Shown: positions 3,763 to 60,890, counted from the stretch's first letter. The stretch is 64,000 nt of DNA from an uncultured Bacteroidota bacterium (GCA_903844645.1 CAIMUP010000006.1:2055-66054); one strand, 5' to 3'. Numbers and translations: made by a program. The notes: generated from the sequence alone by a model not told the origin.

Positions 3763-4367
3763 TATTGTTGCACCGCAAGGGCGGATGCAATCATACCACG
3801 ATGAAATTAGTATTAAGGATGGAATAAAACATGATGATGGCGAAGTTTTTCATCAAAAAGGGCAAACAAGGTATCAGAATCCCGACCAAAGCGATGCTTC
3901 TGAAAGGTTTTTCAATGGAGATGGCACCCATTACTATGGTATAAAAAATCAAAACCATAGTTATTGTTACTAAAAGGTATCTTATTGTTACTAAAAGGTA
4001 TCTTTTTGTTACTAAAACGTAAGTTATTGTTGCTATAAGGTAAGTTATTGTTGTTATAAGGTAAGTTATTGTTGCTATAAGGTAAGTTATTGTTGCTATA
4101 AGGTAAGTTATTGTTGCTATAAGGTAAGTTATTGTTGTTATAAGGTAAGTTATTGTTACTAAAAGGTATCTTATTGTTACTAAAAGATACGTTTGAGTTT
4201 TTTTGGCATATGTTTAAGCTACTATTTGTATCCCAATCACTTCAGCCACCATCGAAAAACCTTCCAGAAGCATTGCCTCGGTCGTGATTGTTAATCCTTG
4301 TTTGCCCTGTTTGATACTTTTTTCATCATCTTATTATGATTGCATCCGCTTTGGCGGTGCAACAATA
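3763..4367. mobile_element. MITE-like non-autonomous element. It has ~33-bp terminal inverted repeats enclosing a 21-bp tandem array.
   Basis: The left TIR 'tattgttgcaccgcaagggcggatgcaatcata' is at 3763-3795. The right end at 4335-4367 is 'tatgattgcatccgctttggcggtgcaacaata', whose reverse complement matches the left TIR except for the central 5 nt. The element exactly fills the gap between two convergent genes. Confidence 0.4.
3959..4192. repeat. tandem array of ~11 copies with a 21-bp unit ('aaggtaagttattgttgctat' and variants)
   Basis: Direct reading of the sequence shows a 21-nt periodicity. Copies diverge at 1-3 positions. Confidence 0.9.
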
Positions 4368-4399
4368 ATAGGATGATGGGTATTCTTATGAATAAGGTA

Positions 4400-5302
4400 T
4401 TAAGGCTGCTTCCGAACCTTCTCTAAAGGGGCACTGACGAGGTAAACGCCTGCGAAAATGAGCATAGATGCCGCGATTTGTACCATCGTAATGCGCTCAT
4501 GGTTCATCGAAAGCGAGAAAATGGTGGCGATAATCGGTTGGAGGTAGATATAAATGCTGACTATCTCGGGGCTGACTTCTTTGAGTGCTATAATATTGAA
4601 TAAATAGGCGATGAAGGTGCTGCCCACGACTACGAAGGCTACGCCGAGCCATATATTCGGGGTGAATGTGCTCCATTGTACGTCCATTAATTCGTCATAA
4701 CCGAAAAAAAGAACTACCGGCAGCCCGAAAATGAATACCCATTTGATAACTGTTAAGGGATGATATTTCAGCATCAATGGTTTGACCAACACAAGATAAA
4801 CGGCATAGAAAAAAGAGTTTAGAAAGATCCAAACATCGCCTGCGATGGCGTGCTTTCCGTCATCAGCATGCTTGGAAAATAAGATAAGAATCACGGCTCC
4901 TGATGCTCCGGCAAGGATACCGCCTACTTTCCACTTCGTAATGCGTTCTTTGATCAGCAAAGCAGCTACGAGTAATACAATCATGGGGTTGGTGGTGATG
5001 ATCAGGGATGCGTTGATGGCTCCTGTTAAGTTTAATCCTTTGAAAAATAATAACTGGTTCACGGCAATGCCTATCACTCCGCAGAAAATCAACATCGGGA
5101 AGTCTTTCCTATCTATTTTCTCGGTCTTAAAGAATGGGCTGATGAGGAAAAACAAGGTCGTCGCGCCCAACACGCGTAGTAATATGAAGCCCATCGGATG
5201 AATATAATCCTTCATCAACGATTTGGCGATGGTATAGTTCGCCCCGTAGATAAAATTGACGATGAGCAGGAAGATATGTGCTCGGAATTTTTTATTCATC
5301 AA
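4400..5302 (-). CDS. EamA/DMT-family transporter (10 TM)
   Basis: The 300-aa polytopic protein has duplicated EamA halves and starts 'MMNKKFRAHIFLLIVNFIYGANYTIAKSLM'. Confidence 0.8.
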   Translation of the reverse strand: MMNKKFRAHIFLLIVNFIYGANYTIAKSLMKDYIHPMGFILLRVLGATTLFFLISPFFKTEKIDRKDFPMLIFCGVIGIAVNQLLFFKGLNLTGAINASLIITTNPMIVLLVAALLIKERITKWKVGGILAGASGAVILILFSKHADDGKHAIAGDVWIFLNSFFYAVYLVLVKPLMLKYHPLTVIKWVFIFGLPVVLFFGYDELMDVQWSTFTPNIWLGVAFVVVGSTFIAYLFNIIALKEVSPEIVSIYIYLQPIIATIFSLSMNHERITMVQIAASMLIFAGVYLVSAPLEKVRKQP

Positions 5303-5320
5303 GACTTTTTCAGGGAAAGG

Positions 5321-5677
5321 TTATAGGTTTTGGAGGGCTTGCTGTGTTTCCTCAAAGGTCTTGGGTGCATTGCCGATGAATATCTGTTTCCCGATGATGA
5401 TCACCGGTCTCTTCAGAAAGGTATAGTCCTCAAGGATGTATTTTTTGTAATCCTTTTCCTGGAGATTCTTTTTCCCCAGCTCCATCGTCCTATACTTCAT
5501 CGCGTTTCGACTGAATAAATTCTCGAAACTGCCTGCAAGGTTCTGCATTTCGTCTAACTGTTGGGGCGTTATCTTTTCTTTTTTAATATCTTGTAAGATA
5601 AAATCCTGCGGCAACCGCAAGTCATCCATAATTCTCTTACACGTGCTGCATGTCGAGAGGTAATATATTTTCTTCAT
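5321..5677 (-). CDS. ArsC/Spx-family redox protein (YffB-like)
   Basis: 'MKKIYYLSTCSTCKRIMDDL' carries the thioredoxin-like CxxC start typical of the ArsC/Spx family. The upstream 29 codons of the listed ORF have no matching signal, so the start is placed at the internal Met. Confidence 0.7.
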   Translation of the reverse strand: MKKIYYLSTCSTCKRIMDDLRLPQDFILQDIKKEKITPQQLDEMQNLAGSFENLFSRNAMKYRTMELGKKNLQEKDYKKYILEDYTFLKRPVIIIGKQIFIGNAPKTFEETQQALQNL

Positions 5678-5834
5678 GCTGCAAAAGTAGGGAAATAACC
5701 GTAGAGGATTCCTGGCAACACCATCTTTCTCTCTAATACTAATGACAAAGGGGACTATCATCATAAGATGATAGTCCCCTTTGAATAGGATTTAAAGGCT
5801 AATGTTATAGGAGCATCAATTTGTTTATACTAAC

Positions 5835-7076: not shown

Positions 7077-7118
7077 AATTTTTAGTTTTAGGGTTTAAGT
7101 TTGTTTAAGAATATTTGT

Positions 7119-8216: not shown

Positions 8217-8418
8217 ACGGTAGTTTTTGTTTTTTATCGTGGCAAAAATAGAAATTAAAATATCAATAGCCAAAGAATCGGGAATAATAGTTGAGGATTG
8301 GAGAATTATTTTGCCCTTGGTCGGCGACTTCGGAGGAGAGTCGGAATCGAGATTTATCCCTAAAAACCCTCCAAAATGCCCCATTTTCCCAAAAACGACA
8401 TGCTTTTACGTTGTGGCT

Positions 8419-8670
8419 CCATCCGCGCGGATGGAACCCATCTGGAGCATCCGACATCTCCCAGCCACGCGGATGGAACCCATCTGGAGGAAGGAATGCC
8501 TCCCAGCCGTGCGGATGGAAGCCATCTGAAGGAAGGAATGCCTCCCAGCCACGCGGATGGAAGCCATCTAAAGGAAGGAATGCCTCCCAGCCCTGTGGAT
8601 GGAAGTTGTCGGAAGGAAGGAATACCTTCCAGCCACGCGGATGGGAGCTATCGAATGCTCCCTATCGAAT
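8419..8670. repeat. tandem array of ~6 copies with a 42-bp unit ('cccagccacgcggatggaagccatctgaaggaaggaatgcct')
   Basis: It was read directly and lies between the porin start and the nuoL stop. ORF-track entries 8291..8722 and 8376..8672 are stop-free artefacts of this array. Confidence 0.9.
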
Positions 8671-10571: not shown

Positions 10572-10898
10572 TTAATTCTCTAAATTTAATGGAATTTCAA
10601 TACCTGTTTTCTTTATTGTTTCAGTAAATGGATCACCATCCTCAAAGTAGGTAGCGTTGTAGGTATGCGGCTCGATTTCGTAAAATCGAGTACAAGCTCT
10701 TGATATTTTGTGAATATCGGCAAGTGAGCCACCATTAAAATCATCTGATACCAAAGCTAAATCAATATCACTCCACTGATTTGCTTGATTTCTTGCATAA
10801 GAACCAAACAAGATTACCTTCTTAAAAGTAACGCCCAAATCATTACATGCTTTGATGTAATCCTTTATATATTGCATTAGAGTTTCTTGCGTAAACAT
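10572..10898 (-). CDS. minimal nucleotidyltransferase (MNT, NTP_transf_2 family; MntA-like)
   Basis: Pol-beta-like motifs 'LFGSYARNQANQWSDIDLALVSDD' (GS...DxD) are present. The protein is 108 aa. Its stop lies 2 bp from the nuoL start. Confidence 0.75.
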   Translation of the reverse strand: MFTQETLMQYIKDYIKACNDLGVTFKKVILFGSYARNQANQWSDIDLALVSDDFNGGSLADIHKISRACTRFYEIEPHTYNATYFEDGDPFTETIKKTGIEIPLNLEN

Positions 10899-10910
10899 GG
10901 GTCAATTGTT

Positions 10911-11138
10911 TTAATTTCTAACACAACTATCTTCAATTATTGGTTCAGTAAAATGTGTTCTATAATATTCTCTCGCAAATTCTAAATCATCAAAGGGGCC
11001 AATCCAAACTCCATGTTTGCCCTTTTCAGCATCCTTTATCATACCTTGTCCATTTTGACAAAATCCACAATCAGACTGGTGAATTTTAGGACCATTAAAA
11101 TCTTTTGCTTGCCAGTTTTCATAGATATAATAACTCAT
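10911..11138 (-). CDS. hypothetical 75-aa protein, possibly metal-binding
   Basis: '...HQSDCGFCQNGQG...KHGVW...AREYYRTHF...DSCVRN' contains a CxxC. The intergenic gaps to both neighbours are only 6 and 12 bp. AT-rich codon usage is shared with the neighbours. No family was recognised. Confidence 0.5.
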   Translation of the reverse strand: MSYYIYENWQAKDFNGPKIHQSDCGFCQNGQGMIKDAEKGKHGVWIGPFDDLEFAREYYRTHFTEPIIEDSCVRN

Positions 11139-11144
11139 AATATT

Positions 11145-12104
11145 TTAATTTTTAATTTTATTTATTTCCCAAACAAGGTCATTAACCCCTGTCCAAACAC
11201 TACTTTCAAGACTTGAAATTGAATCCATAACTCCTATAATATTATTACTTAAATCCCCCATAGCATTGAGCAAATCCTTTTCAAATTTGCTATTAAAAAT
11301 CCCGAGTTTTTCAAATTCATTGTAGATAGTATAAAATAAGATTAACTCATTTCCTATTAAAGCATTTATCATTTTTATTGATATTTCATGGAGCGATTTT
11401 AGGTATTGATTTTGCTTTTCAAAGTTGTCTAATATCATTGAAACATTGTTATCAATATTTATCTCTCTCAACATAATTCTCTGCTTTTCCATTGAATTTT
11501 GTTTTGCTTTCAAATACTCATTTAATTTTACAAAAGGTAGTATATATTCTTTGTCAATTTGTTTTTGATTCTGTAAAAGTATTTCATTAAAACTTCTGAT
11601 TTCAGGTATCGTATTCGCTGTTAGGAATGTACTGACTTGTAATTGCAATTGATCTTCTTTTTCTTTGATTTCTACTAATTCTTTTTTTTCTAAAATGGAT
11701 TCCATTAATTCAAGATTTACTAAATACGATTCCATCATTTCTTCCAATAATACAAATTCATCTGAAGATACAATTCCGTAATGTGTACCATTATACAGGA
11801 ATGAATATTGAATTGAAAAAAGTTTGTTATATTTATGAAATGTTATAGTACTAAATGATTGAAACGGAATACAAATTGGATAATCTACATTTGGCCAACC
11901 AACAAAATATTTATTAGAAATCTGCCATCCAGATTTCTTAAACGAAAAAATATAATTGCCTAATTTGTTTATCCAGCCTTCTCTGTATATTTCAAACTGT
12001 TTCTTTAAATAGACTTCATTATTTTCAAAAAATTTATTAAAGAAAACCTCATTGAATTCATTAATGCTTTTTAGCTTTTCAAAATCAGATTCTTCAAAAT
12101 CCAT
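11145..12104 (-). CDS. hypothetical 319-aa cytoplasmic protein with an aromatic-rich N-domain and an alpha-helical/coiled-coil C-domain
   Basis: The ORF is long and AT-rich, with no TM segment and no signal peptide. No family was recognised. It is the first gene of a tightly packed three-gene unit. Confidence 0.6.
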   Translation of the reverse strand: MDFEESDFEKLKSINEFNEVFFNKFFENNEVYLKKQFEIYREGWINKLGNYIFSFKKSGWQISNKYFVGWPNVDYPICIPFQSFSTITFHKYNKLFSIQYSFLYNGTHYGIVSSDEFVLLEEMMESYLVNLELMESILEKKELVEIKEKEDQLQLQVSTFLTANTIPEIRSFNEILLQNQKQIDKEYILPFVKLNEYLKAKQNSMEKQRIMLREINIDNNVSMILDNFEKQNQYLKSLHEISIKMINALIGNELILFYTIYNEFEKLGIFNSKFEKDLLNAMGDLSNNIIGVMDSISSLESSVWTGVNDLVWEINKIKN

Positions 12105-12181
12105 AACTAATATATTTTTATTTTATGATATTTAAGGCTGCTAAAGTATAAAAAAAGCCATTTATAAGGTAAATCACCTTG

Positions 12182-12575
12182 AAAACACCGTCGCTGGACT
12201 TCCTCCAACGGGCGTTGGAATCATCCCAACGGGCGTTGAAACCGTTCCAATGCCTTTTGGAGCCTCCCAATGAGTCTTGAAACCATTCTAACGTCCGTTG
12301 AAACCATTCCAACGGGCGTTGGAACCGTTCCAACGCCTTTTGTGCCTCTCCAACGGGCGTTGAAACCATTCCAACGGGCGTTGGAGGAAGTCCAACGACG
12401 GTCAAAAACCCTTCAAATCGCATATTCGCACCGCCGAATCCAATATTCTTACCGTCGAATCGCATTCTCACACCGCCGAATCCAATATTCGCACCGTCAA
12501 ATCGCATTCTCGCACCGCCGAATCCAATATTCACACCGTTGAATCGCATTTCTTTATGCCCGAATCCAATATTAT
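12182..12575. repeat. two consecutive 21/42-bp tandem arrays
   Basis: The first unit is 'ccaacgggcgttgaaaccatt', flanked by inverted repeats at 12187-12210 and 12379-12402. The second unit is 'cgcattctcgcaccgccgaatccaatattcgcaccgtcaaat'. ORF-track entries 12118..12585 and 12270..12542 are artefacts of these arrays. Confidence 0.9.
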
Positions 12576-12578
12576 CCA

Positions 12579-12911
12579 TTACCACTTCAATTTATTCAAA
12601 AGATTAATGTCAATAGACTTGATATTCCGGAATATCATCACGATTATCGCTAATCCTACCGCTACTTCTGCTGCCGCTACTACCATGATGAAGAATACAA
12701 AGACCTGTCCTGCGGCATCTGAACGGTAGGTCGAGAAGGCTGTAAGGAGAAGCGTTGCGGCATTCAGCATCAATTCAATGGACATAAAAATAATGATGGC
12801 ATTCCGTCTGATTAATACCCCAAGAACTCCGATAGAAAAAAGTATCGCACTCAAATAAATATAGTGCTCTATCGGGATGGTTTTGGCGATATGTGTAATC
12901 TGGTCTGTCAT
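12579..12911 (-). CDS. nuoK: NADH-quinone oxidoreductase subunit K
   Basis: The 110-aa 3-TM protein ends in '[15 protein letters not shown]...[14 protein letters not shown]'. Confidence 0.9.
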
Positions 12912-13995: not shown

Positions 13996-14235
13996 CTTAT
14001 TTTTTATTTTGAAGCCGCAAATCTAATAAAATCTCTTTAAAAGAAAGATGATATAAATCAGAAAGTCCTCCGTACCGATAGATCGGTTTTACCGAAGGCC
14101 TTTTCATTATTCCCAACATTTCGGGCATTAAATGAAAATAAATCGCGTTTTCAACGGGGAATTGGGAAAAATAAATTTTCATGCCCCCGACTGAAATTTT
14201 TTTATTGGCTATAAAAGAGTCATCATTTTTAAAAA

Positions 14236-14322
14236 AAACATGTTGTCGGCATCAGAAAACATGTTTTCGGCATCGGAAAACATGTTGTCGGCATCGGAAA
14301 ACATGTTGTCGGCATCGAAAGA
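14236..14322. repeat. tandem array of ~4 copies with a 21-bp unit ('aaaacatgttgtcggcatcgg')
   Basis: It was read directly. ORF 14209..14691 (which encodes a 'DADNMFS' heptad repeat) is an artefact of this array. Confidence 0.85.
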
Positions 14323-14412
14323 CACCTGTTTCACTCCTTTATATATAGGCAGCTTTTTGGGGATGCCGGAAACGATTTGGAAAATGTAGCGGAAATGGGG
14401 TATATTTGCGGG

Positions 14413-15412: not shown

Positions 15413-18400
15413 TTAGTTTTGGATTGACTGGAAATACTGGTCAACCTTTTGTCTGTAATAAGGATTTAATGAAGGGGGCAAAGTTTTTAACAATTCAATT
15501 TCTTTTAATTTGAGCCTTTTATACTCATCTAAATCGAAAGGGTTACGTTTTGCCACATTTTTTCCTTCTTTGCTTTCTCTTTTCTCGTCTTGCTCCCGTT
15601 CTTTTTCGGCTTTTTCGCTCTCTAATAATCTTGTTTTGATTTGGTCAATCCTGTTCAAGGTCTCTTGTGATATTCTATTATTGACCAAGTCCTTCTGTAC
15701 CTCCTCCATCTGTTGCGCCATCTTCCCGAGGTCGCCCAAAGACCCCTTTCCATCCTTATTTTCAGATTTATTCAGTTCATTCACAGCATCGCGGATGGCA
15801 GCCTGTTGAGCAGCCAACTTGGCTAATTGTTCGTTCATTCCGTTAGGTCCGTTTTCTCCATTCTTACCATTTTCTCCAGGCTTCGCACCGTCCTGCCCTT
15901 CTTTGCCATCTTTGCCGCCGGGTTTCTTACCGTTCTCACCCTTCTTTTGTCCTTCTTTTAATTTCTTGATAGCATCCGCCAAGTTATCTTGCATCTTCTT
16001 AATATCCGACATAGAATCTTTCTTTTTCCCCTTTCCAGGCTTCTTACAAGCCCCCGAACCCGGCTTGGCTTGCGATTCAGCCTGCTGCATCTGGCTCAAT
16101 GCCTCGGATAAAATCAGCGCGAGGTTATTCATCGAAGTCATGGCATATTGCTGATTGTTCCTCGCCATACCGGTATTGCGTTCCTCAAAGAAATCAAGCG
16201 ACTTATCTATATTCATGTTGATGGAGTTAATCTCTTTATTTACCGTGGAAGAAATCTGGGTAACCCGTTTGCTCAATGCCGTAAGACTGTCTTCAATCAT
16301 CCGCATATCGTCCTTCAGCTTGCGTTCGTCCTTTCCGATTTTGAGGTATTGAGGATTATTAACATCAAAGTCTTTCAATTGCCCCATCAACTCCTCTTGG
16401 TTGAACGATATGCGAATTAAATTCTCTAACAATGCCCGCAATGCAGCTTCATCCTCACCTTCCTTTTCGGCACCGGCAGCAGCAGCACTGGCAGCCATTT
16501 TATCTGCCATCTTCTTCATTTTGTCGGCGGCTTTCTTTTGAGATTTAGAGGCGTTGCTCTTCTTGTTTTGTTCCAGACTTTCTTTGGATTCCTTCTGCTC
16601 TTGTGAAATATCCTTCTGCTCTTCATCTGTATTCTCCATCTTCTCGGGAGTCGTCAGTTCTTGGTTCTTCTTTTCTATCTCCTTAATATCTTTTTTAATA
16701 TCCTCGAAGCTCTTGTTCAGGTCGTCCTGTTTCTTTTCAAGTTCTTTAGTATCGGCATTCTTCTCTTCAGTTTTGTCCGCGAGCTTCTTTTGTTCTTCCG
16801 CGAGCTTGTTGATCTTCTCCACCGTTTCCGTGAACTTCTTTTCTACTTCCATCTTCTTGAAGATCTCCAGTGTCCGGTCCATCTCCTTCTCGATGTCCTT
16901 ATTCGAATATTTCATCTCCTCCAACTTATCCTGAATCTTCTGTTTGTCCATGTTCTCCATAAGCTTTTTCAGTTCGTCCATCATCTTTTTCATTTCAGGA
17001 TTCATCAGCTTATCCATCAACTTATTCAGTTCCTCCTGCTTCTGCAGAATATCTTTATTGACTTCCTTATATTCCTTTTCGTTCTCTTGTTTCTGTTTGT
17101 TTTCCTTTTGAATTTCGGCAGCTTTGTTCTCCAATTTTTCCTCCCGCTTCATCACATCCTCAATCTTCTTTTTATCCTCCCAATTCAATGATTTCTTATC
17201 AAACATATCCTTGTTTATTTCATTCAAATCCTTCTCTAATTTCTTTGCATCGGCAAGCGCATCCTTCAATTCCTGCTTGATTGCATCACTCTTGGCTCCC
17301 GTGCTTTGCTCGATTTCTTTCAAAGTAGGAGCTTTGAAAATGTATGTCGCCGACCGTGTTGCCTTGCTTCCATTCACGCCGTCATTATCCCAAACTTCGA
17401 AGAAATATTCTATCTCATCTCCTGCCGAAACCTTCAAGTTTCCTGCATCCCAATAATAGAAGAACTGATCTTGCATGGCGTTGTTATGAACCGGAATAGC
17501 CTCGGCAAATTCCTTGCCCTTGTTGGCGGATGAATCATCGGTCTTGAGAAATTTATACACGAAATTCAATTTATTAAAACCATAATCATCCTTCACCAAA
17601 CCCTTGAAAAAATACCGCTTGGTGCTCAATGAATCCTTCTGTTGCTCAACATTTATCGTGGGGTACAAATCAGGAATCACGGTTACGGAATAGCGAATGG
17701 AATCTTTGCTTTTCAATTGAGAATTGGAGGTCGAGATGGCATAGTTGTCGCTTTCCATAAACTTCCGTGAGTAACCGAATTTATTTGCCTCGATGAGATG
17801 AACATCCACGACGGCATTGTCTTTAAAGATCAACTTCAGGGCATCCGTATTTCTCGTCAGGAATTTCCAGTTCACCTTCGTGCCGGCAGGGATATTAAAG
17901 TCGCCTGTATTCTGTAATTTATCGTTCGCCTTGCCGGTGTATGCCGGATATTCAAATGCTGCCTCGAAGGTCAGTACCAAGGGATTCGGGATCGCCACCA
18001 ACTCATATTCTTTGCTTGTTACGCCATTCCCGATGAGGTGGAAGGTGGTATTTTTTTGCACATTTTTAAAGTCGAAATGATAGCTTGCATTGTTCTCTTT
18101 TTCCAACTTAAACTGGTTGCCGCCGATCTCGATGTAGGCGTTCTCGGGGACTTCATTTCCCGCAATCCGAATATCCAACCGATAGTCCTCTTGCTGCACC
18201 GCTTTCAGGTCTTTATTCAAAACCTCGAAGGAGAAAGGCGCAGGTTTCTCGAAGTATGTCCGGTGTTCAATCATCCTTTTGGTGCCGTCTTTGAGAATGC
18301 TGGAATTGATGAAAAACAAGCCCAGGAAAATCATCAGGGGAACCAAGGCAAACTTGAGATATTTCTTATTCTCCGTCAAATCGATTGCGGAAGTGAACGG

Positions 18401-18910: not shown

Positions 18911-18941
18911 AAAGTTCCTTAAATGTTGGTTAAATTATTTT

Positions 18942-19026
18942 GAAAACGGGTTGTCCTTTTCAGAAAACGGGTTGCCGTTTTTTGAAAACGGGTTGCCGTT
19001 TTTGGAAAACGGGTTGCCGTTTTTAA
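18942..19026. repeat. tandem array of ~4 copies with a 21-bp unit ('gaaaacgggttgccgtttttt'), each unit a 7-bp-stem hairpin
   Basis: It was read directly. It lies 30 bp upstream of the start codon at 18910. Confidence 0.85.
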
Positions 19027-22103: not shown

Positions 22104-22355
22104 ATCCCCTGAAACATGTTTGAAGGGCTTTGAAACATGTTTGAAGGGCTTTGAAACTATTCTTGAGGGCTTCAAGAATAGTATGTGGAGAGCAAATACT
22201 ATTATGTGGAGAGGAAATACTATTATGGGGAGAGGAAATACTATTATGTGGAGAGCAAATACTATTATGGGGAGAGCAAATACTATTATGTGGAGAGGAA
22301 ATACTATTATGTGGAGAGGAAATAATAGTATGTGGAGAGGAAATACTATTCTTGC
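22104..22355. repeat. two abutting 21-bp tandem arrays joined by a palindrome ('catgtttgaagggctttgaaa' x3, then 'tatgtggagaggaaatactat' x9)
   Basis: It was read directly. The junction 'ctattcttgagggcttcaagaatag' is palindromic. ORFs 22099..22392 and 22151..22399 are artefacts of these arrays. Confidence 0.9.
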
Positions 22356-22528
22356 GGAGCGAAAGAATCTTTTTGCCCCTTTCGGGGGATAAAATTTGAA
22401 TTGATAAAATGGAAGGCGGCGGCGGTTTTTGGGTTTGAGATCAGGGAAAAAGAAGGGGTGGCGAAAGAATCGGATAATTTATTTAGTTTTGACCCGTTCA
22501 CAAATCGTAAATTCTTATTCTTAATTTC

Positions 22529-26603: not shown

Positions 26604-26770
26604 TGAGATTTCCTGAGTGAAACCCCATATTTCCTGAGTGAAACCCCATATTTCCTGAGTGAAACCTGAGATTTCCTGAGTGAAACCCGAGATTTCCTGA
26701 GTCAAAACCGAGATTTCCTGAGTCGAAAATCGTCTTTTATCAAAGCAAAAAGGGTTTCGACTCAGGAAAT
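26604..26770. repeat. tandem array of ~6 copies with a 21-bp unit ('atttcctgagtgaaaccccat') and a terminal inverted copy
   Basis: It was read directly. The cap pair is 'tttcctgagtcgaaa' at 26714-26728 and 'tttcgactcaggaaa' at 26755-26769. ORF 26454..26807 is an artefact of this array. Confidence 0.9.
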
Positions 26771-28631: not shown

Positions 28632-28725
28632 CTCTTATTAAATACCCCGAAACGCAGTTTTTATTCCCCGAAACAATGGCTTTTCAACGGTAAGAGAAGG
28701 GTTTTGGCATATTTAATGGCTTTTA
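28632..28725. repeat. dispersed ~95-bp intergenic element, copy A of a family also found at 47920-48012
   Basis: 'ctcttattaaatacCCCGAAACgcagtttttattccCCGAAACaatggcttttcaacggtaagagaagggttttgg' has ~75% identity to copy B. It contains the duplicated motif 'ccc(c/t)gaaac'. Confidence 0.7.
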
Positions 28726-28924
28726 AAAAGTCATTATTAATTGAAATTGGCAGCAACCAACTACCGGTTGGCAGCGCAGGAACTTCTAATTTTTGGTTTC
28801 GAGGAATCGGTACTAGGGGTGGAATTTTTTTATTGTCAGGATATTTTTTACTTTTGCCCCCGTAGATAAATCGGGGATGCCGAAAACCGAATAGAGTAAG
28901 CGCAAAAAATTAAAGAATAATACA

Positions 28925-38227: not shown

Positions 38228-38255
38228 CGTTCCTCCCGAATAATTTCTCATTCCA

Positions 38256-38288
38256 AGAGCCGCTACCATCGTAGCGGCTCTTTTTTTG
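38256..38288 (+). terminator. rho-independent terminator of the giant adhesin gene
   Basis: 'agagccgcta ccatcg tagcggctct ttttttt' gives a 10-bp perfect stem, a 6-nt loop and a T7 run. Confidence 0.75.
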
Positions 38289-38319
38289 TTGGTTCTTTTT
38301 TACCTTCCCGTTTTTCTTT

Positions 38320-38900
38320 GGAGATGATGGGTGAAATCAGGTTTGATACCCGATATTTTCCTGAAATCATTCGTTTTTTTCCTGAAATCACTCCTATTTT
38401 CGGGAATTTGAGGCGTGATTTTGGGAATTTGATGCATCATTCCAAAACCGTTACTCGTCTATTACACGCATTATCAAGTCATTTTCACGAAACAGGTCGT
38501 CATAAAAAGTAAACACATCGTCTTTTCGATGAAACTTATCGTAGTTTCGATGAAACTGGGTGCAGTTTCAATGCAACTGGGTGCAGTTACGATTAAACTG
38601 GGTGCAGTTTCAATCAAACTGGGTGCAGTTTCATTGCAACTGGGTGCAGTTGCATTGAAACTGCACCCAGTTTCATCGAAACTACGATAAGTTTCATCGA
38701 AAAGACGACAAGATGCATTTAAAAGACGATAAGATGCATCGGAATGACGAATAAAAAACTTGGAATGACGAATCATTTAAGAGGAATGACGAGTCTTTTT
38801 CTTGGAATGATTCGTAGTTTTCTTGGAATGATGTGTCTTTTCTTTGGAATGATTCGTATTTGATTTGGAATGACGAATAGATGGATCAGAATGACTTATA
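38320..38900. repeat. compound region of at least three different 21-bp tandem arrays, with an orientation flip through a perfect palindrome
   Basis: The unit families are 'cctgaaatcattcgttttttt', 'tcgatgaaactgggtgcagtt' and 'cttggaatgacgaatcattta'. The perfect inverted repeat 'aactgggtgcagtt/gcattgaa/aactgcacccagtt' lies at 38638-38673. ORFs 38318..38512 and 38474..38776 are artefacts of these arrays. Confidence 0.9.
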
Positions 38901-38972
38901 AAAATCTTTTTTTTATGAATCTTATTCCACGAAAGATGCAACAAAAGAGGCGGATGACTCCTCGTTTTCTTT

Positions 38973-43699: not shown

Positions 43700-43835
43700 C
43701 GTTCTCTTGGTGTCCCCCGCGATGGCGGTGGTGCCCAAAAAAGTGGCGGTGGCGTTCCCCGCGATGGCGGCGGTGTCCAAAAAAGTGGCGGTGGCGTCCA
43801 CCGCCACTTTTTTGGACGCCACCGCCAAGGTATTT
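43700..43835. repeat. 42-bp tandem array ('ccccgcgatggcggtggtgcccaaaaaagtggcggtggcgtt') ending in a 16-bp-stem palindrome
   Basis: It was read directly. The palindrome 'aaaaaagtggcggtgg cgt ccaccgccactttttt' lies at 43779-43813. It sits in the divergent promoter region between the 1525-aa gene and the 43889 gene. ORFs 43616..43828, 43666..44016 and 43686..43880 are artefacts of this array. Confidence 0.9.
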
Positions 43836-45760: not shown

Positions 45761-45828
45761 GTTTTTAATGGAAATCGGGGTTGAAATTAGCGTAATTGAC
45801 CTCCATAAAACAAAAGTTTAAGCCTACT

Positions 45829-45965
45829 ATCTTACGCTAATTGCCTGCTCACTTACGCTAATTGCCTGTTCACTTACGCTAATTCTGACCTCACTTACGC
45901 TAATTGCCTGCTCACTTACGCAAACTATCAGCCCACTTACGCAAATGCTGACCTCGGTTACGCTT
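45829..45965. repeat. tandem array of ~6 copies with a 21-bp unit ('cacttacgctaattgcctgct')
   Basis: It was read directly. Confidence 0.9.
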
Positions 45966-47738: not shown

Positions 47739-47919
47739 AATTATTCACCCTTTTCCTTGAATTAAATCATCGTTGTTCTTCTGCTTCCCAAAACATTCCG
47801 CAATTTCGCGCCATGTTAATAGCTGATTCCGATACCGCTAAATTTCAATCCCCGAAGATATTCTCGATGAAAATCGGGCTTCGCCTATTGGCAGCCAAAA
47901 ATTTCATCTCGAGATGCAA

Positions 47920-48012
47920 CTCTTATTAAATACCAAAAATCACAGTTTTTATTCCCTGAAACACCCGTTTTGTAACGGTAATGGAGGGGTTTTGGAGGAG
48001 TTAATGAGGATT
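47920..48012. repeat. dispersed ~95-bp intergenic element, copy B of the family at 28632-28725; it directly precedes a 21-bp array
   Basis: 'ctcttattaaataccaaaaatcacagtttttattccctgaaacacccgttttgtaacggtaatggaggggttttgg' aligns with copy A over its full length. Confidence 0.7.
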
Positions 48013-48035
48013 AATTTCTCTTTAATTTTGGAAAT

Positions 48036-48168
48036 CGCTTACCTGCCCATGCCGCTGTCTCACTTGCCCGTACCGCTGTCTCACTTGCCCGTGCCGCTGT
48101 CTCACTTGCCCGTTCCGCTGTCTCACTTGCCCGTGCCGCTGTCTCACTTGCCCGTGCCGTTGTCTCAC
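48036..48168. repeat. tandem array of ~6 copies with a 21-bp unit ('cttgcccgtgccgctgtctca')
   Basis: It was read directly. ORFs 47914..48183 (which encodes an 'LPVPLSH' heptad repeat) and 48022..48225 are artefacts of this array. Confidence 0.9.
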
Positions 48169-48349
48169 ATGTTTTTCAAATAAAATAAAATTTAAATATA
48201 CTATTAACTTACTAAAATTAAACAATGGAAACTTTACAACAGAGAATTAACAGATGGTTTTTTAAACCTTAAACTTTTTTTGTTGGAGATGTATTGCCAT
48301 GTAAAAAACTTTGTTTAACTTTGTAGTCTAATAATTATAAAATAATAAG

Positions 48350-53479: not shown

Positions 53480-54577
53480 TTATTTCATTATCTTTTGTGT
53501 GATTATAGAATTATCCGTTTTTATTTGGATAACATAAATTCCACTTTGAAACTTAGACATATCAATGATCTTACTGGTAGCATCCAATGTTTCTTTGTAA
53601 ATAGTTTGCCCTAATACATCTGCAATAGAAATTTCCTTGAACGATTCGCCATTGGATTGAATGGTAACTTTATCGGTAACAGGGTTTGGATAGATACCAA
53701 ATAATTGACCGTTAGTAGGATTATCAATGCCTGTAGTAATAGCATCTACAACATCTACCGAAAGGATAGAAGCTGATGCCATTCTGTTTAACTGATGAGA
53801 GATACACATACTATCTATACATCCATGTCCATCAGAAATGTATAAGCAAATGGTATAATATCCAGCGGCAGCATATCCATGTCCGGGATGAGAAATAGTA
53901 TCAGAACTGTTGTCTCCCCAAGTCCATAAATAAGAGATAGGTGCTGCACCAGATGATGCGTCAACTGCCCAATAATGATGTGGATGCGTGGTATCCGCGT
54001 GAAGCGAAAAATTAGCATGGCAAGTACCGCTGTAATGATGATTCCCTACATGGAATGTATCGCAAGAATGGCAGTTATTAGAATCGGTTACGCAAACCCA
54101 ATACGTTCCGGGTGCTAAATGATCACGATAATGATTCGTCGAACCATCATTCCAAAGGAAGGTATATGGAGGCGTTCCGTTGGTAAGCGAAAGCGAAATC
54201 CAGCCATCATGACAAGTATCGCAAGTAGCGATTTGTGTGGTTCCATGAACTTCCAAATGACAATGATGGATTCCGGTAACGACAACCGAATCGCAATAGG
54301 TGTCGCAGGCATGATGATTGTCATCATACATCGTAACGCATACCCAATACGTTCCCGGGTAGTCAAAAACATGGGTAGGATTGGTAACATGGTCGTTGTC
54401 GCCATCGCCAAAATGCCAGTAAAATGTCGGAGTTGTAGGTCCGGTACTGGTGTTGGTGAAGGCGATGGTGTTGTTGGCAGTTTGATGCCAAGTGAAGCCT
54501 GAAGTGCAGGTTGCTGTAGCTTCGGAAATCGTTAAAACGAACATCAAAGCAATTAAAATGGTGTAAATTTTTTTCAT
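53480..54577 (-). CDS. His/Cys-rich PKD-domain protein with a T9SS type-A sorting domain
   Basis: PKD-like 'FYWHFGDGDNDHVTNPTHVFDYPGTYWVCVT' and 'YLWTWGDNSSDTISHPGHGYAAAGYYTICL' segments are present. Very His/Cys-dense segments include 'HHCHLEVHG', 'CDTCHDGW', 'NNCHSCDTFHVGNHHYSGTCH' and 'THPHHYW'. The T9SS tail is 'GIYPNPVTDKVTIQ...GIYVIQIKTDNSIITQKIMK'. Confidence 0.75.
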   Translation of the reverse strand: MKKIYTILIALMFVLTISEATATCTSGFTWHQTANNTIAFTNTSTGPTTPTFYWHFGDGDNDHVTNPTHVFDYPGTYWVCVTMYDDNHHACDTYCDSVVVTGIHHCHLEVHGTTQIATCDTCHDGWISLSLTNGTPPYTFLWNDGSTNHYRDHLAPGTYWVCVTDSNNCHSCDTFHVGNHHYSGTCHANFSLHADTTHPHHYWAVDASSGAAPISYLWTWGDNSSDTISHPGHGYAAAGYYTICLYISDGHGCIDSMCISHQLNRMASASILSVDVVDAITTGIDNPTNGQLFGIYPNPVTDKVTIQSNGESFKEISIADVLGQTIYKETLDATSKIIDMSKFQSGIYVIQIKTDNSIITQKIMK

Positions 54578-54604
54578 CTTTTTATTTATTAAATTATTAA
54601 TTTT

Positions 54605-56065
54605 TTATTTTTCTACCGAAAACTTTCCTTGATAAGCTTCCTTGTTATTTTTTAGCTGATAAAAATAAATTCCATTGCTCCAACGCGAGACATCAATCGA
54701 AGTATTTATACCATTAATTAATTGCTGATGAACCTCTCTGCCCGCAACATCGGTGATCAATAATTCTTGATTATCCGTCTTGGAATTGATGAAGAAATTT
54801 ACCGATGTATTCGCGGGATTAGGATAAACAACACAGCTTAAATTGCTTGACAAATTATCCGAAGCATTTGTAATAACAGCATTAAATGTTCCCTTTCTAT
54901 ATCTCACAACTCCTGCGCCATCATCTTCCCAAACCACATGAATGGTATTTATTCCAAGCACAACATCGGCATTGGTAATGTTATTCAAATCAACGGTATC
55001 ATACATTGTAGGAAACCCATTGGCAATATTATTTGTGAATAAAACAGGTAGCTGGTCATTGTTACTTACAGTTTGTTTCCAAACTATTGCTGCGGCATTT
55101 CCATTGTTTGCCATGCGGGGATAATTCTGGAGGGTTAAGCCGGAAATCGAGCCGGTCAATGCCACTGTAGGTCCTGCTGTTAAATTACTAACAGAGGATT
55201 TGCTATAATAACATCTATCCATTCCACTTGCGCCACTCATAAAAGCCGAATACAAAGTATCACCGATAATAAATCCATCAGGTCCGCTGGATGGGCAGGA
55301 CATCAACATCCAATTATTTTGATCAACCCTCATTCCATTCGTAAAAGCCGAGCCGCCATTGGTAGAAATCCCTGCCCAGGTATTACGATAATTCGCATTA
55401 GCATCGCGATAAGACATGGCAACGTTATTGCCGGAACTGATAATAGCACCCGGACAGCAATCGCAAATATATCCGCCTGACCAACCGCTTGCTAACACAC
55501 TTGGCGAAAAAGTCATTCCATAATCATTGGATTTTGCAACCGTCCAACGGGCATTGCCAAATGAAGAATTAAATCTCATAAATCCAACCAAAGGATTGCC
55601 TGAACTATTAGTGGTAACAGTCGGGAAGCGGGTAAGGCTATCATTAAAATCTACCTGAACAGGCATCGAAAAAGTCATGCCGCCATTGTAGGAATGAACC
55701 ATGAAAATATGATTGGTATCCGAACCTTCCGGCTCTCTTTTATAGACCATGTACACCGTATCGCCATGCGAAGCAATATCGGGACCAGCCCATGTTTCAG
55801 CCATTACATCATGTGTTCCGGGATTAACAGCCATAGGCGTGACAAACATACTCCCGTTCCAGCGAGTAAAATAGGCTTTCCCGCTATTATTGTCCCCCCA
55901 TAAAACCAATGGGTTTCCGGCAGCATCGAGCGTGATACGCGGATGATGGTTCTGATAACCTGCAATGGCAACAGTTATCGGAGCAGACCATGTGATTCCG
56001 CTTTGAGCTTTGGAAATCGTAACCACGAACATCAAAGCAATTAAAATGGTGTAAATTTTTTTCAT
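54605..56065 (-). CDS. BNR/sialidase-like beta-propeller protein with a T9SS type-A sorting domain
   Basis: The signal peptide 'MKKIYTILIALMFVVTISKAQ' is identical at the DNA level to the start of the 53480..54577 gene. The repeated 'S.D.G.TW' BNR-like motifs are weak. The C-terminus is 'VVYPNPANTSVNFFIN...GIYFYQLKNNKEAYQGKFSVEK'. Confidence 0.65.
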   Translation of the reverse strand: MKKIYTILIALMFVVTISKAQSGITWSAPITVAIAGYQNHHPRITLDAAGNPLVLWGDNNSGKAYFTRWNGSMFVTPMAVNPGTHDVMAETWAGPDIASHGDTVYMVYKREPEGSDTNHIFMVHSYNGGMTFSMPVQVDFNDSLTRFPTVTTNSSGNPLVGFMRFNSSFGNARWTVAKSNDYGMTFSPSVLASGWSGGYICDCCPGAIISSGNNVAMSYRDANANYRNTWAGISTNGGSAFTNGMRVDQNNWMLMSCPSSGPDGFIIGDTLYSAFMSGASGMDRCYYSKSSVSNLTAGPTVALTGSISGLTLQNYPRMANNGNAAAIVWKQTVSNNDQLPVLFTNNIANGFPTMYDTVDLNNITNADVVLGINTIHVVWEDDGAGVVRYRKGTFNAVITNASDNLSSNLSCVVYPNPANTSVNFFINSKTDNQELLITDVAGREVHQQLINGINTSIDVSRWSNGIYFYQLKNNKEAYQGKFSVEK

Positions 56066-56098
56066 CTTTTTATTTTTTTAATTAATTAGAGTGCAAAG

Positions 56099-56257
56099 TT
56101 ACAAATAATATTTGAGATAACCAAAATCCCTCCCCATTTCTTCTGTATAATTCTCGCTTTCCAAAATCTTTTTGCCTAATGCACGAAATCGAATTTCGAA
56201 CTTTGAATCAATCGCTTTTGGCATCTTTTTGTAACGTGGTTTCTTCGGTATTTTCAT
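56099..56257 (-). CDS. possible small basic protein (52 aa) between the 308-aa orphan gene and the BNR gene
   Basis: I translated this by hand. It is below the ORF-track cutoff. The sequence is 'MKIPKKPRYKKMPKAIDSKFEIRFRALGKKILESENYTEEMGRDFGYLKYYL'. There is no homology support. Confidence 0.25.
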   Translation of the reverse strand: MKIPKKPRYKKMPKAIDSKFEIRFRALGKKILESENYTEEMGRDFGYLKYYL

Positions 56258-56270
56258 TGTTATTTATTTA

Positions 56271-56303
56271 AGACCTTCAAGGATTTAAAAACCTTGAAGG
56301 TCT
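56271..56303 (-). terminator. perfect 12-bp-stem hairpin downstream of the 308-aa gene
   Basis: 'agaccttcaagg atttaaaaa ccttgaaggtct' is followed on the minus strand by an A/T-rich tract. Confidence 0.5.
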
Positions 56304-56339
56304 GGTTTCTGATTTCTAATTTTTAATTCCTAATTGACT

Positions 56340-57266: not shown

Positions 57267-57332
57267 TCGTTTTATTATTTAATTTTCGTTAATTGTATTA
57301 TAAATCAGTGTATTGTTGCATGAGAAAGCATA

Positions 57333-57545
57333 TTATCTACGCCAGATAATGTATAATCTAAGCCAGCGGGACGCCCCGCTGACCGTGAAGGGAGCCCCGC
57401 TGACGCAAAAGGTATCCCCGCCGACCGCGAAGGGAGCCCCGCTGGCGTAAAAGGTATCCCCGCTGACCGCGAAGGTATCCCCGCTGACCGCGAAGGTATC
57501 CCCGCTGGCGCAGATAATATCCCCGCTGGCGTAAATAATCCGGAA
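57333..57545. repeat. TIR-flanked tandem array of ~8 copies with a 21-bp unit ('ccgctgaccgcgaaggtatcc')
   Basis: The TIRs are 'attatctacgccag' at 57333-57346 and 'ctggcgcagataat' at 57505-57518. ORFs 57305..57622 and 57358..57588 are artefacts of this array. Confidence 0.9.
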
Positions 57546-57656
57546 ATCGCTGCGGAAAATGGATCAGCATATCCTGACAATAGTCCAAACCACACCCCTA
57601 AACTTCCCAGCAAGTTTTTCATCTTGCAGATAAATTTGGAAATATTTGAGAAACTA

Positions 57657-57742
57657 CTAGTAGAGTAGAGTATAGTAGAGTAGAGTATAGTATAGTAGAG
57701 TAGAGTAGAGTAGAGTAGAGTAGAGTAGAGTAGAGTAGAGTT
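57657..57742. repeat. simple hexanucleotide repeat (tagagt)n of about 14 copies
   Basis: It was read directly. ORF 57657..57896 is an artefact of this repeat. Confidence 0.9.
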
Positions 57743-57927
57743 TCGCCGGGCGAAAATTATCAGAAAAATTTCCTAAAATGCAAACTCCGCCCAAGTTTTT
57801 TTGAGAGCCGTTTGCGAGCTTCTGATATGTGTTTTGAATGTTCATTTTTCTGTTTGAGAGTGCAATATTACTAAAAGTTTTTATTCTTCCAAACATTTGT
57901 GCAAATATTTTTGGTGAGCGAATGGTA

Positions 57928-58917: not shown

Positions 58918-59004
58918 ATTCTTATTTTTTAATATTTTTTAACGATTGTAAATCCATGTCCGCGATTAATTGTACTTTTAAATTTTCAAACTAAATTTAT
59001 TCTT

Positions 59005-60564
59005 ATGAAAACGCAAATATACAGATTCAAAAGTTTTGCTGCATTGCTGCCGAAACTATGCCTGCTTATTCTTATTCTATTTACCTTCTCTATGCCTGCA
59101 AATGGACAGATTGCTGATGATTTTTCGGATGGTGATTTCAATAATAATCCAACATGGAGCGGCGATGTCGGAAGCTTTAAAATCAACACCTCAAAAGAAT
59201 TGCAATTGAACGGGGTTGCTGCAGATACTTCCTATTTATCCACCCCAAATACTTCTATCAATAATACGGAATGGGACATCTGGTTGAAGATTTCTTTAGC
59301 TCCTACGGCAGGGAATAACGAACGTATTTATTTAGTCTCCGATCAGGCGAATCTGAAAGGAAGTCTCAATGGATATTTTATCTATTTGGGGGCTAATAAA
59401 AATATTGCCATGATAAAACAAACAGGCAATGTAACAGTAAATATTTTTACAGGCATCGCGCAGCATGTCAACAAAACAGTAAATAGTATTGGTCTGAAAA
59501 TTACCAGAGACAGCCTTGGGCTATGGACAATATATTCCGATACAACCGGTGGAATCAATTATATTCCTGAAGGCAATCCATTTATGGATAGCACCTTTAC
59601 CACAACAAATTATTTCGGGGTCGTTTGCCAATATACTGTCAGTAATGCAACCAAGTTTTACTTCGATAATATTTATGTAGGTGGGATTAAAACCAATGCC
59701 CTTCCGAGTCTTATTCCCGATAGTTTCGACATTGTGGTGAATGAAATTATGTACGACCCCATATCAGGAGGTAGTGATTTTGTGGAGCTTTATAATCGTT
59801 CCGATAAAACTTTTGATTTGAAAGATATATCCATAGCCAATGTGGGCTTTACTTCTGGTATTGTGATGGATACTGTTCCCATTACCGGAACCAGTCGTTT
59901 GTTCCTTCCTGGTGAATATATTGTGCTAACGGCGAGTATCGCAAATGTCCTGTTTCAATACCCTAAATCAATCCCAAATAGCTTTATCGAACTACCTGTT
60001 ATGCCCCAGTTCTATGCCGATAGCGGAGGGGTTGCTATCATTAGCTCGAATAAAATCATTGACCAGTTTCAATATTCCAATGCTATGCAATTCCCGATGC
60101 TAAACGACTTACATGATGTAAGTTTGGAGCGACTGAATTTCGATAGAATGACGCAGGATAATACCAATTGGCATTCTGCTTCGGAGGGGGTTGGGTTTGG
60201 GACTCCGGGGTATAAGAATTCTCAATTTGAATCCAACGAAAGTGTTCAAAACAACTTCTATTTAGAGCCTGAAATATTCTCTCCGGATAATAATGCTTAC
60301 GAGGATGTGGTGAACCTTCACTATCATTTTAAGACTGCTGGAAATGTTGGAACGATCACTATCTTTGATGCCAAAGGAAGGTTGGTTAGAAATCTTGTTT
60401 CTAACGAGTTATTGGGGACTGATGGCGCGTATAGTTGGGATGGGATTAATAATCAAAATACCAAGGCGGGTGTAGGAATTTATGTGGCTTATCTTTCTGT
60501 TTTCGATTTAAAGGGTGTTACGAATTCTTTCAAAAAGACGTGCGTACTTGCGGCGAATTTATAG
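59005..60564 (+). CDS. secreted lamin-tail-domain (LTD) protein
   Basis: A signal peptide is present. The LTD signature 'VVNEIMYDPISGGSDFVELYNRSDKTFDLKDISIAN' is present. A C-terminal beta-sandwich follows. Confidence 0.65.
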   Translation: MKTQIYRFKSFAALLPKLCLLILILFTFSMPANGQIADDFSDGDFNNNPTWSGDVGSFKINTSKELQLNGVAADTSYLSTPNTSINNTEWDIWLKISLAPTAGNNERIYLVSDQANLKGSLNGYFIYLGANKNIAMIKQTGNVTVNIFTGIAQHVNKTVNSIGLKITRDSLGLWTIYSDTTGGINYIPEGNPFMDSTFTTTNYFGVVCQYTVSNATKFYFDNIYVGGIKTNALPSLIPDSFDIVVNEIMYDPISGGSDFVELYNRSDKTFDLKDISIANVGFTSGIVMDTVPITGTSRLFLPGEYIVLTASIANVLFQYPKSIPNSFIELPVMPQFYADSGGVAIISSNKIIDQFQYSNAMQFPMLNDLHDVSLERLNFDRMTQDNTNWHSASEGVGFGTPGYKNSQFESNESVQNNFYLEPEIFSPDNNAYEDVVNLHYHFKTAGNVGTITIFDAKGRLVRNLVSNELLGTDGAYSWDGINNQNTKAGVGIYVAYLSVFDLKGVTNSFKKTCVLAANL

Positions 60565-60639
60565 GGAATAAGTTGTAGGTGAAATAGGGTGGGGGAGGTG
60601 GATAAAAACTTTCTCTTGGGGTGTTGGGGAGTCTTCGGT

Positions 60640-60890
60640 TCGACACTAATTTTATGCCATTGGAAAAGGAATTTATACTATTGGAAAAGGAACTTTGTCG
60701 GGGTTTGATTTACTTTATTCGATGCCTATTTTATTATTCACTATGGTTGTTTTAATTTCTACGATTCCGTTTTGAATTTCTACGAGGGTTGTTTTAGTTT
60801 CTAAGGTTTCGTTTTGAATTTCTACCATGGGTTTTGGAACTTATACGATGGCTGTGGCGGTTTATACGTCCTGCACCCGTGTTTTAATAT
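60640..60890. repeat. degenerate 21-bp tandem arrays ('ccattggaaaaggaatttata' x2, then 'gttttgaatttctacgagggt'-like x6)
   Basis: It was read directly. It is more diverged than the other arrays. Confidence 0.7.

Follow-up and report, generated by a model that had tools for sequence, protein, structure and literature searches.

The 64,000-nucleotide stretch of DNA studied here (the window; GCA_903844645.1, CAIMUP010000006.1:2055-66054) comes from an uncultured Bacteroidota bacterium, and most of its long intergenic gaps contain tandem arrays whose repeat unit is 21 bp or an exact multiple of it. These arrays are non-coding, intergenic and clade-restricted 21-bp minisatellites, a bacterial 'satellite DNA'. 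They gain and lose whole units and form higher-order units of 42, 63 and 84 bp, and in-place inversion of parts of them has left many arrays ending in, or bordered by, their own inverted unit, an arrangement of the hairpin or foldback type. Copies of at least one unit family are found in several gaps. Although unit sequences turn over quickly, related species retain the arrays in position and with a period of 21 bp. The best explanation is that the arrays occupy dispensable DNA, i.e. convergent, divergent and tandem gaps, operon break points and the scars of insertions.

The survey for period 21 combined Tandem Repeats Finder (TRF), autocorrelation over the whole window and a duplication scan. 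The 80 TRF rows collapse to 22 non-overlapping arrays, 18 with a period of 21 bp and two with a period of 42 bp; the other two are a coding 126-bp repeat and an AGTAG pentamer. Higher-order periods (42, 63 and 84 bp) occur frequently, matches between units are imperfect (63-94%), and the GC content of the consensus units ranges, by inspection, from roughly 30% to nearly 70%, several arrays being GC-rich inside AT-rich gaps. Autocorrelation peaks are visible at lags of 21, 42, 63, 84, 105 and 126, and no lag from 10 to 34 other than 21 rises above what the pentamer array yields. At a threshold of at least 86% identity, the duplication scan returned 15 intergenic loci at period 21 and 11 at period 42, compared with none or one at each other period from 11 to 48, and it returned no tandem duplications from the coding DNA of the window. 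The division into gaps and coding sequence follows a gene model assembled manually from open reading frames (ORFs), Pfam hits and public gene calls; under this model about 34% of intergenic bases are periodic at lag 21, compared with 0.24% of coding bases. An array of 21 or 42 bp is present in 13 of the 15 gaps of at least 270 bp and in none of the eight gaps shorter than 125 bp, and all three gene orientations (convergent, divergent and tandem) are represented. For long gaps these counts bear out the first-pass annotation of this DNA, which had described an array in nearly every intergenic gap, and all 13 array regions that it listed were recovered by TRF at the same coordinates. Several of those regions resolve into two to six adjacent arrays (12204-12397 with 12413-12573, 22110-22172 with 22182-22350, and 38314-38964), and what had been called a hexamer repeat at 57657-57742 is instead the pentamer AGTAG in 16.6 copies. 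This pentamer array (57659-57741, 94% matches) lies downstream of asd in a gap shared with a 21-bp array, and no other long intergenic repeat of the window departs from the 21-bp period.

The 21-bp periodicity of intergenic DNA is real and holds beyond the window. The same contig carries further 21-bp arrays on either side: four within 8.3 kb upstream (L170) and four within 6.6 kb downstream (L001). The host genes are those of Bacteroidota, as judged from Pfam matches and gene calls, and include gldH, many genes for Por_Secre_tail proteins of the type IX secretion system (T9SS), the nuo genes, asd, gltX and metK. Protein searches delimit a small clade around the source genome, with NuoL relatives at 91, 88, 82 and 82% identity followed by a drop to 69%, and Asd relatives at 87-79%. 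Contigs of these relatives (NuoL at least 82%, Asd at least 79%; from JGI, ENA and Logan) carry arrays of 21, 42 and 63 bp with other unit sequences. A census of periods, counting arrays of at least 2.9 copies, compared 187 kb of DNA from the clade with 2.41 Mb from other Bacteroidota (160 loci around nuoL or asd), the latter being distant relatives among the matches listed (NuoL at most 65%, Asd at most 74%). The clade DNA holds 31 arrays of 21 bp, three of 42 bp and one of 63 bp, together with two of 7 bp, one of 5 bp and a coding array of 126 bp, so that 35 of 39 arrays have a period of 21, 42 or 63 bp. Among the other Bacteroidota this is true of 3 of 63 arrays, all three of 21 bp, and the commonest period there is 7 bp (30 of 63); the density of arrays with multiples of 21 is ~150-fold higher in the clade. 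The uniform unit length reported earlier (21 or 42 bp, to which 63 bp is now added) is therefore an intergenic, clade-wide property and no coincidence of one window, and the broad distribution of unit lengths that had been named beforehand as the result that would refute it was not seen within the 187 kb of clade DNA. No arrays were detected in 13 kb of the nearest outgroup (NuoL 69%), nor in the stretches examined of relative L168 and of the closest NuoL relative, L171 (91%). A viral scan for ATTTCCTGA at 21-nt spacing returned only unrelated giant-virus and phage repeats of many periods. Short-read assemblers do mishandle repeats, and copy number differs between assemblies, which could suggest an assembly or chimera artefact. 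However, the arrays recur base for base in independent ENA and Logan assemblies from different samples, at 99.98-100% identity, and JGI, ENA and Logan contigs of related species share the period with different sequences, so that the probability of an artefact is negligible.

As the unit equals seven codons, the arrays might also be small genes or gene parts that encode heptad-repeat peptides. Six-frame translation shows at least one open frame in every array, public gene callers call ORFs over many of the arrays, and one ORF (12118-12585) extends from the nuoK stop to just short of the following start codon. However, the number of open frames is about that expected by chance on a rough estimate, and the array at 26605 is closed in all three frames of the strand that carries both neighboring genes. 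Variation between units is spread evenly over positions modulo 3, with no third-position excess, synonymous changes seldom make up more than ~40%, and none of the frames is consistently favored over the others. Stop codons interrupt every frame of the 650-bp periodic gap at 38314-38964, which has no long ORF, and orthologous arrays in the related contigs L086 and L167 would encode unrelated peptides, a gene being called over only one of them. A coding origin is thus largely refuted and very improbable; the situation named in the first-pass annotation as contradicting its view, arrays inside real heptad-repeat genes, is not what the codon positions and the interrupted frames indicate. Its statement that each array yields stop-free ORFs on both strands holds insofar as every array has some open frame, but is not universal, given the closed frames at 26605, and its remark that such ORFs pollute the annotation agrees with the public gene calls. 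Small ORFs in the arms that flank the array at 3959, similar by eye to an AbrB/MazE N-terminus, were also considered and dropped, as the copy in the right arm has in-frame stops and the synonymous fraction is neutral.

Changes within and between species illustrate how the arrays evolve. In the ERZ27313597 assembly the array at 3959 has exactly four central units (84 bp) fewer than in the window, with otherwise identical aligned flanks, and over another 15 kb the sole difference consists of 3 nt at 57490-57492, inside the array at 57368, where the change converts one unit variant into the other. At a greater distance, the flanking genes in the contigs L086 and L167 show 78-83% DNA identity, and the gap between the FA-desaturase and YebC genes has the same conserved boundaries in each. 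Both gaps contain 10-11 units of 21 bp, and the two consensus units match at 9 of 21 positions, as expected by chance.

The nuo region provides a further example. The genes nuoI-J-K-L-M-N are contiguous in other Bacteroidota, as established by synteny, and in the window arrays follow nuoK, follow nuoL and precede nuoI, and a low-GC island is inserted between nuoK and nuoL. An array of 42 bp (2 x 21 bp) at 8419-8652, with 5.4 copies according to TRF, register print and synteny, fills the gap between the nuoL stop (8662) and a porin start (8384), where the operon is broken; the 21/42-bp array at 12413-12573 (TRF) directly follows the nuoK stop (12579), within the operon, and adjoins the inserted island. 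In L172 (NuoL 88%) the order is nuoK, a 21-bp array of 10.8 copies, an island with Mrr, HEPN and MNT genes, and nuoL, and its array after nuoK can hardly be aligned with that of the window. L173 (NuoL 82%) has a 42-bp array of five copies just downstream of nuoL, in the gap that matches the one occupied by the window's own 42-bp array, and in L171 (NuoL 91%) the operon is intact and free of arrays. The arrays thus sit at scars of rearrangement and insertion, persist there, change their sequence quickly and keep their period. The island itself (10572-12104, 31% GC) encodes a 319-aa ORF with no Pfam hit, a 75-aa ORF and a 108-aa MNT-type nucleotidyltransferase, the latter two resembling a toxin-antitoxin pair. 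In the source genome nuoM/N and nuoA-H are detached from nuoI-L.

The relatedness of units was assessed by comparing them all against all, cyclically and on both strands, against a shuffle null. At most loci the units are unrelated to one another. The first-pass annotation had extended this to all of them, which is too strong: one unit family occurs at no fewer than six loci (26605 and 38356 in the window; 15716, 15988, 18799 and 19083 in L001), and whole gaps are in-register gradients of related units. Units of this family from 26605 and 38356 match those of the four L001 arrays at 13-16 of 21 positions, above the shuffle distribution. The element at 26605 as a whole is ~82% identical to L001 19030-19262, including the non-repeat flank and the inverted unit, and the inverted copy co-varies with the unit between these two related loci. 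In a print with a 21-nt register, 31 consecutive units (38314-38964) and 11 consecutive units (60651-60881) remain in phase despite the drift of the unit between sub-families. Because whole gaps stay in one register, neighboring arrays that look different are diverged and re-amplified parts of a single array. Two adjacent arrays at 22110-22361 (22110-22172, three copies; 22182-22350, eight copies; TRF and register print) share one 21-bp register and are joined via an intermediate unit and a 10-nt inverted junction.

Inverted copies are frequent at the array ends. A scan of the flanks of 27 arrays, with shuffled flanks as the null, identified a significant inverted copy of the array's own unit beside 10 of them, and longer inverted arms add the arrays at 3959 and 57368. 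The first of these two belongs to a foldback-like element (3754-4376) between convergent genes, where imperfect inverted arms at 3754-3918 and 4249-4376 enclose a 21-bp array of 11.2 copies of AGTTATTGTTGCTATAAGGTA (3959-4193; TRF); the complementary segments, of 67 nt (84%) and 51 nt (82%), lie within these two regions of ~130-165 bp. The second, a GC-rich 21/42-bp array (57368-57539, within a feature at 57326-57539), is preceded by two inverted units at 57326-57367, with inverted arms of 39 nt that are 74% complementary (57332-57370). At 26605-26770, 5.9 copies of the 21-bp unit GAGATTTCCTGAGTGAAACCC are followed by a 21-nt spacer and one inverted unit (26752-26770), all in register, and the 42-bp array at 43708-43833 (2.3 copies) ends in its own inverted copy (43798-43827; 30 nt, 93% complementary, 3-nt loop), a junction that resembles a terminator-type hairpin. 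A 21/63-bp feature at 45785-45964 consists of an array of CTTACGCTAATTGCCTGCTCA (45831-45964) with an 11-nt inverted copy of the unit ahead of it (45785-45795, p<0.005). The convergent gap at 38314-38964, downstream of a terminator-like hairpin (38255-38282), is one continuous 21-bp register of ~31 units that drift through five to six sub-families, and its segment 38478-38748 forms a 270-bp imperfect palindrome of 21-bp units, with arms of 133 nt (38478-38610 and 38616-38748) that are 77% complementary and 5 nt apart.

It is plausible that the arrays grow and shrink by replication slippage or by unequal recombination in register, and that the inversions arise by fold-back (quasi-palindrome) template switching, which would change the sequence and keep the length. 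The period appears to be actively constrained and not merely inherited. With the TRF percentages at the best period (mismatch ~15%, indel ~0.7%), indels within arrays are estimated at ~1 per 20 substitutions; units that have diverged to chance similarity would then be expected to carry one or two fixed indels apiece, and under neutral drift many arrays ought to have shifted to 20 or 22 bp. Yet among 42 arrays whose period is close to 21 bp or a multiple of it, 41 have an exact multiple of 21, so that simple inheritance with neutral drift seems insufficient. This argument is a rough one, based on our own indel estimate. Three possible sources of the constraint may be considered: (i) expansion and homogenization locked to 21 bp, (ii) length-preserving inversions as the main agent that scrambles the sequence, and (iii) selection for phasing at two helical turns. 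A process-based, non-adaptive origin, in which register-locked slippage acts together with length-preserving inversion, is considered the likeliest source, with a probability of roughly 45%.

Several points weigh against such a process-locked period. It is an inference, and we know of no slippage model that predicts a step of 21 bp. Arrays that stay in position while their sequence turns over completely would also be expected if a sequence-independent function were under selection. Assembly collapse could account for differences in copy number between short-read assemblies. About half of the arrays have no inverted copy and most units have no hairpin potential: internal dyad symmetry was rejected as a universal property of the units, being significant in only 3-4 of 27, and folding z-scores are heterogeneous (mean -0.44), with z < -2 in only 4 of 35 units. 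Hairpins are therefore not the whole story. Finally, the data cover only ~79 kb of the source genome and ~108 kb of its relatives.

The main alternative to a process-locked period is that the arrays are functional DNA elements selected for their period and not for their sequence, in which units of two helical turns present one helix face and serve an abundant, sequence-tolerant nucleoid protein as phased scaffolds or insulators, or provide a phased DNA structure between transcription units; the idea goes back to the first-pass annotation. Exact periods of 21, 42 and 63 bp that persist despite sequence turnover would be expected under such selection, as would the retention of arrays of similar length and unrelated units in the same gap of species with ~80% identical genes and the presence of arrays in nearly all of the long gaps, and GC-rich arrays in AT-rich gaps would be unexpected for decaying junk. 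On the other side, no motif (4-mer) shared by the units exceeds the intergenic background, so that the protein recruitment suggested earlier finds no support in a sequence-specific form: GAAA and GGAA are enriched relative to mononucleotide shuffles, but relative to real intergenic background GAAA is not and GGAA is only mildly so. An A-tract or 10.5-bp curvature design is unspecific, since the 7-bp and 10.5-bp harmonics rise equally against a null in which tracts are broken, and the GC-rich arrays have no A-tracts; no consistent design of this kind is seen across the arrays. Moreover, the array-free stretches of L168 and L171 make the arrays look dispensable, filler DNA accounts better than a regulatory design for their occurrence at broken operons and scars of insertion, and no candidate protein is known. 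Selection for phasing, in either form, is therefore considered unlikely.

A different possibility is that the arrays are made or extended by an enzyme specific to this clade that contains a molecular ruler of 21 bp. Candidates would be an integrase or transposase whose cycles of insertion and excision leave target-site duplications of 21 bp, or a polymerase or repair activity with a fixed slip of 21 nt at hairpins. A uniform period with diverse sequences that is limited to one clade, present in relatives with NuoL of at least 82% and absent from 13 kb of the 69% outgroup, would be consistent with such an enzyme, as would the restriction of other periods to exact multiples of 21, and the hairpins associated with the arrays could be its recognition structures. 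However, the duplication scans revealed no excess of nascent two-copy 21-bp duplications in unique or coding sequence, which weighs against an enzyme that duplicates arbitrary DNA. Weak two-copy 21-bp repeats with 76-84% matches do occur in genes, at 16764-16807 and 16952-16996 of the window (in a 1165-aa DUF4175 protein) and at 11774-11825 of L173 (in nuoL), and are too few and too diverged to indicate ongoing 21-bp duplication in genes. In addition, adjacent arrays originate by divergence from each other rather than from unique sequence nearby, some were copied from arrays at other loci, a Pfam search of 20 window proteins provided no candidate gene, and to our knowledge no element with a 21-bp target duplication has been described. 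A ruler enzyme is thus quite improbable. The first-pass annotation had likewise invoked a dedicated generating mechanism; the part of this proposal that stands is that something constrains the period, as orthologous gaps keep it with unrelated units, and the part that fares poorly is generation de novo, for which coding DNA offers no excess of 21-bp duplications. In its broadest form, the idea of a dedicated period-setter would include either a two-helical-turn ruler enzyme or replication-repair quirk that builds and homogenizes arrays from any sequence, or a sequence-blind chromatin or insulator system that requires phasing at exactly two turns, under which array position and period would be kept and the sequence left free. 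Taken in this breadth it is a real possibility, if short of even odds.

Among the known systems with which the arrays of this clade were compared, the closest are Borg tandem repeats, Drosophila foldback elements and lineage-restricted heptamer repeats. The tandem repeats of Borg extrachromosomal elements are perfect copies, about half of which lie inside ORFs, and their intergenic unit lengths are broad, with only 14-38% divisible by three (PMC9879509). Like these, the present arrays are pervasive tandem direct repeats of a prokaryotic replicon, with essentially locus-unique units that are nearly absent from related genomes, evolve fast and vary in number within populations; unlike them, they are imperfect (63-94%), show higher-order structure and occur only between genes, with 21 bp and its multiples as the sole period. 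The REP/BIME and REPIN sequences of Proteobacteria consist of one conserved palindromic sequence per genome, mobilized by a RAYT transposase (PMC3116915). Similarities include short, extragenic, often hairpin-forming sequences that cluster with inverted partners after genes and inside operons, but the units described here are locus-specific, mostly non-palindromic and arranged head to tail with a fixed period, and lack a conserved palindrome. Their inverted partners, beside 10 of 27 arrays plus the two with longer arms, are array ends and not canonical REPIN doublets. MIRU elements of Mycobacterium have units of ~40-100 bp that are sequence-related across loci, operon-oriented and equipped with small coupling ORFs. 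They resemble the present arrays as dispersed intergenic minisatellites of variable copy number, some of them inside operons, and differ in that the unit here is 21 bp and unrelated at most loci. The ORF at 12118-12585 would fit a coupling ORF, but the array at 26605 is closed on the gene strand and other arrays lie in convergent and divergent gaps. Foldback (FB) elements of Drosophila are eukaryotic, kilobase-sized and mobile, some with coding sequences thought to supply transposition functions. Their inverted arms of short tandem repeats have counterparts in the palindrome at 38478-38748 and in the inverted ends of the arrays at 43708, 57368 and 26605; unlike in FB elements, many arrays have no inverted arms, and no transposase or target duplication was identified.

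Lineage-restricted, abundant and short intergenic direct repeats of unexplained origin are also represented by the TAACTGA-type heptamers of Beggiatoaceae, Cyanobacteria and some Bacteroidetes, which consist of one specific 7-nt sequence near start codons (PMC4679880). The 21-bp units differ from these in having neither a 7-bp sub-period, so that a substructure of 3 x 7 bp was rejected, nor a common sequence. Heptamer arrays also exist in this clade and in the Bacteroidota background; in the clade they were noted in L170 (6712-6743), L084 (6526-6559 and 6608-6641), L167 (3756-3803 and 7996-8019) and L086 (5031-5071), mostly in the form AATTnnn (AATTCTC, AATTGAC, AATTATA, AATTAGG, AAATGGC). One of them is located within a T9SS/SprB-like gene, ~30 nt from its 5' end, where a gain or loss of units would cause a frameshift. 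CRISPR was rejected because the units are contiguous and both halves recur in the 42-bp arrays, leaving no unique spacers, and no Cas families were detected in the Pfam scans of 20 window proteins (not every ORF) nor among the called genes of the loci. Iterons and partition-site repeats were rejected since each locus has a different unit and no rep or par genes are present among the scanned neighbors. ToxI-like repeats of type III toxin-antitoxin systems were rejected in view of the housekeeping and secreted-protein genes that the arrays adjoin in every orientation, and no such RNA was returned by an Rfam search at gathering thresholds. The only Rfam match in the window is to the unrelated DUF805b motif, and the gap at 47739-48349 has none at E<=1. 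In a full-text literature search, which does not cover all journals, uniform-period 21-bp arrays in Bacteroidota were not found described.

The remaining arrays of the window vary in size and composition. The array at 12204-12397 (21 bp, TRF) has ~9 copies of the palindrome-bearing unit TCCAACGGGCGTTGGAACCAT with two 1-nt register shifts, an 8-bp dyad (p=0.01) and a fold z-score of -2.4. A divergent gap contains 4.3 copies of the 21-bp unit AAAACATGTTGTCGGCATCGG at 14235-14324 (TRF), and 4.2 copies of a 21-bp unit with the 7-bp dyad CCGTTTT/AAAACGG are located at 18938-19025 (TRF), 28 nt upstream of the start of the gene for the 1165-aa protein. At 48044-48168, 6.0 copies of the GC-rich 21-bp unit TGCCCGTGCCGCTGTCTCACT (94% matches, TRF) are surrounded by AT-rich flanks. 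Eleven 21-bp units in one register are present between convergent genes at 60651-60881, of which TRF detects only 60651-60692 and 60745-60833.

A number of other repeated or structured sequences were noted. The coding 126-bp (42-aa) repeat, with 5.3 copies at 32819-33490 within a 3100-aa ORF, has by eye a YVTN-type beta-propeller-like peptide motif; its length is also a multiple of 21, probably by coincidence. The DUF805b RNA motif (28870-28902; 37.9 bits, above the gathering score) is positioned just upstream of the same ORF. A sequence of ~85 nt, ~85% identical between its two copies at 28632-28715 and 47920-48005, lies upstream of the 3100-aa ORF (28925) and of a 627-aa ORF (48350), both large secreted-protein genes, and may be a shared promoter or leader. 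Another sequence, of 83 nt, is repeated with 91.6% identity at 54518-54599 and 56006-56088, at the junctions of neighboring Por_Secre_tail genes. Similar strong hairpins that begin with TTCATCGTC..TTGTTGCA follow genes in two genomes of the clade, at 3753-3805 of the window (with the inverted copy at 4326-4376) and at 12470-12520 of L172, and may represent a separate family of terminator-like or REP-like elements.

For practical purposes, the arrays create many spurious 'hypothetical protein' calls in metagenomes of the clade and are likely collapse points in assemblies, and they would serve as ready-made variable-number tandem repeat (VNTR) markers for strain typing. Intergenic repeats of bacteria usually share either a common sequence, as do REP, MIRU and CRISPR, or have arbitrary unit lengths, as do VNTRs and Borg repeats; in this clade, about a third of the intergenic DNA consists of arrays whose common property is length only. 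The question of what sets repeat length in bacteria thereby becomes directly testable. If a mechanism enforces the length, the arrays point to an unknown property of the replication or repair machinery of the clade, or to a mobile element. If selection enforces it, they are evidence for sequence-independent, helix-phased DNA elements in bacteria. A dedicated period-setter, should it exist, would be a principle of genome architecture new to bacteria, comparable with the constraint on length in the satellite DNA of eukaryotes.

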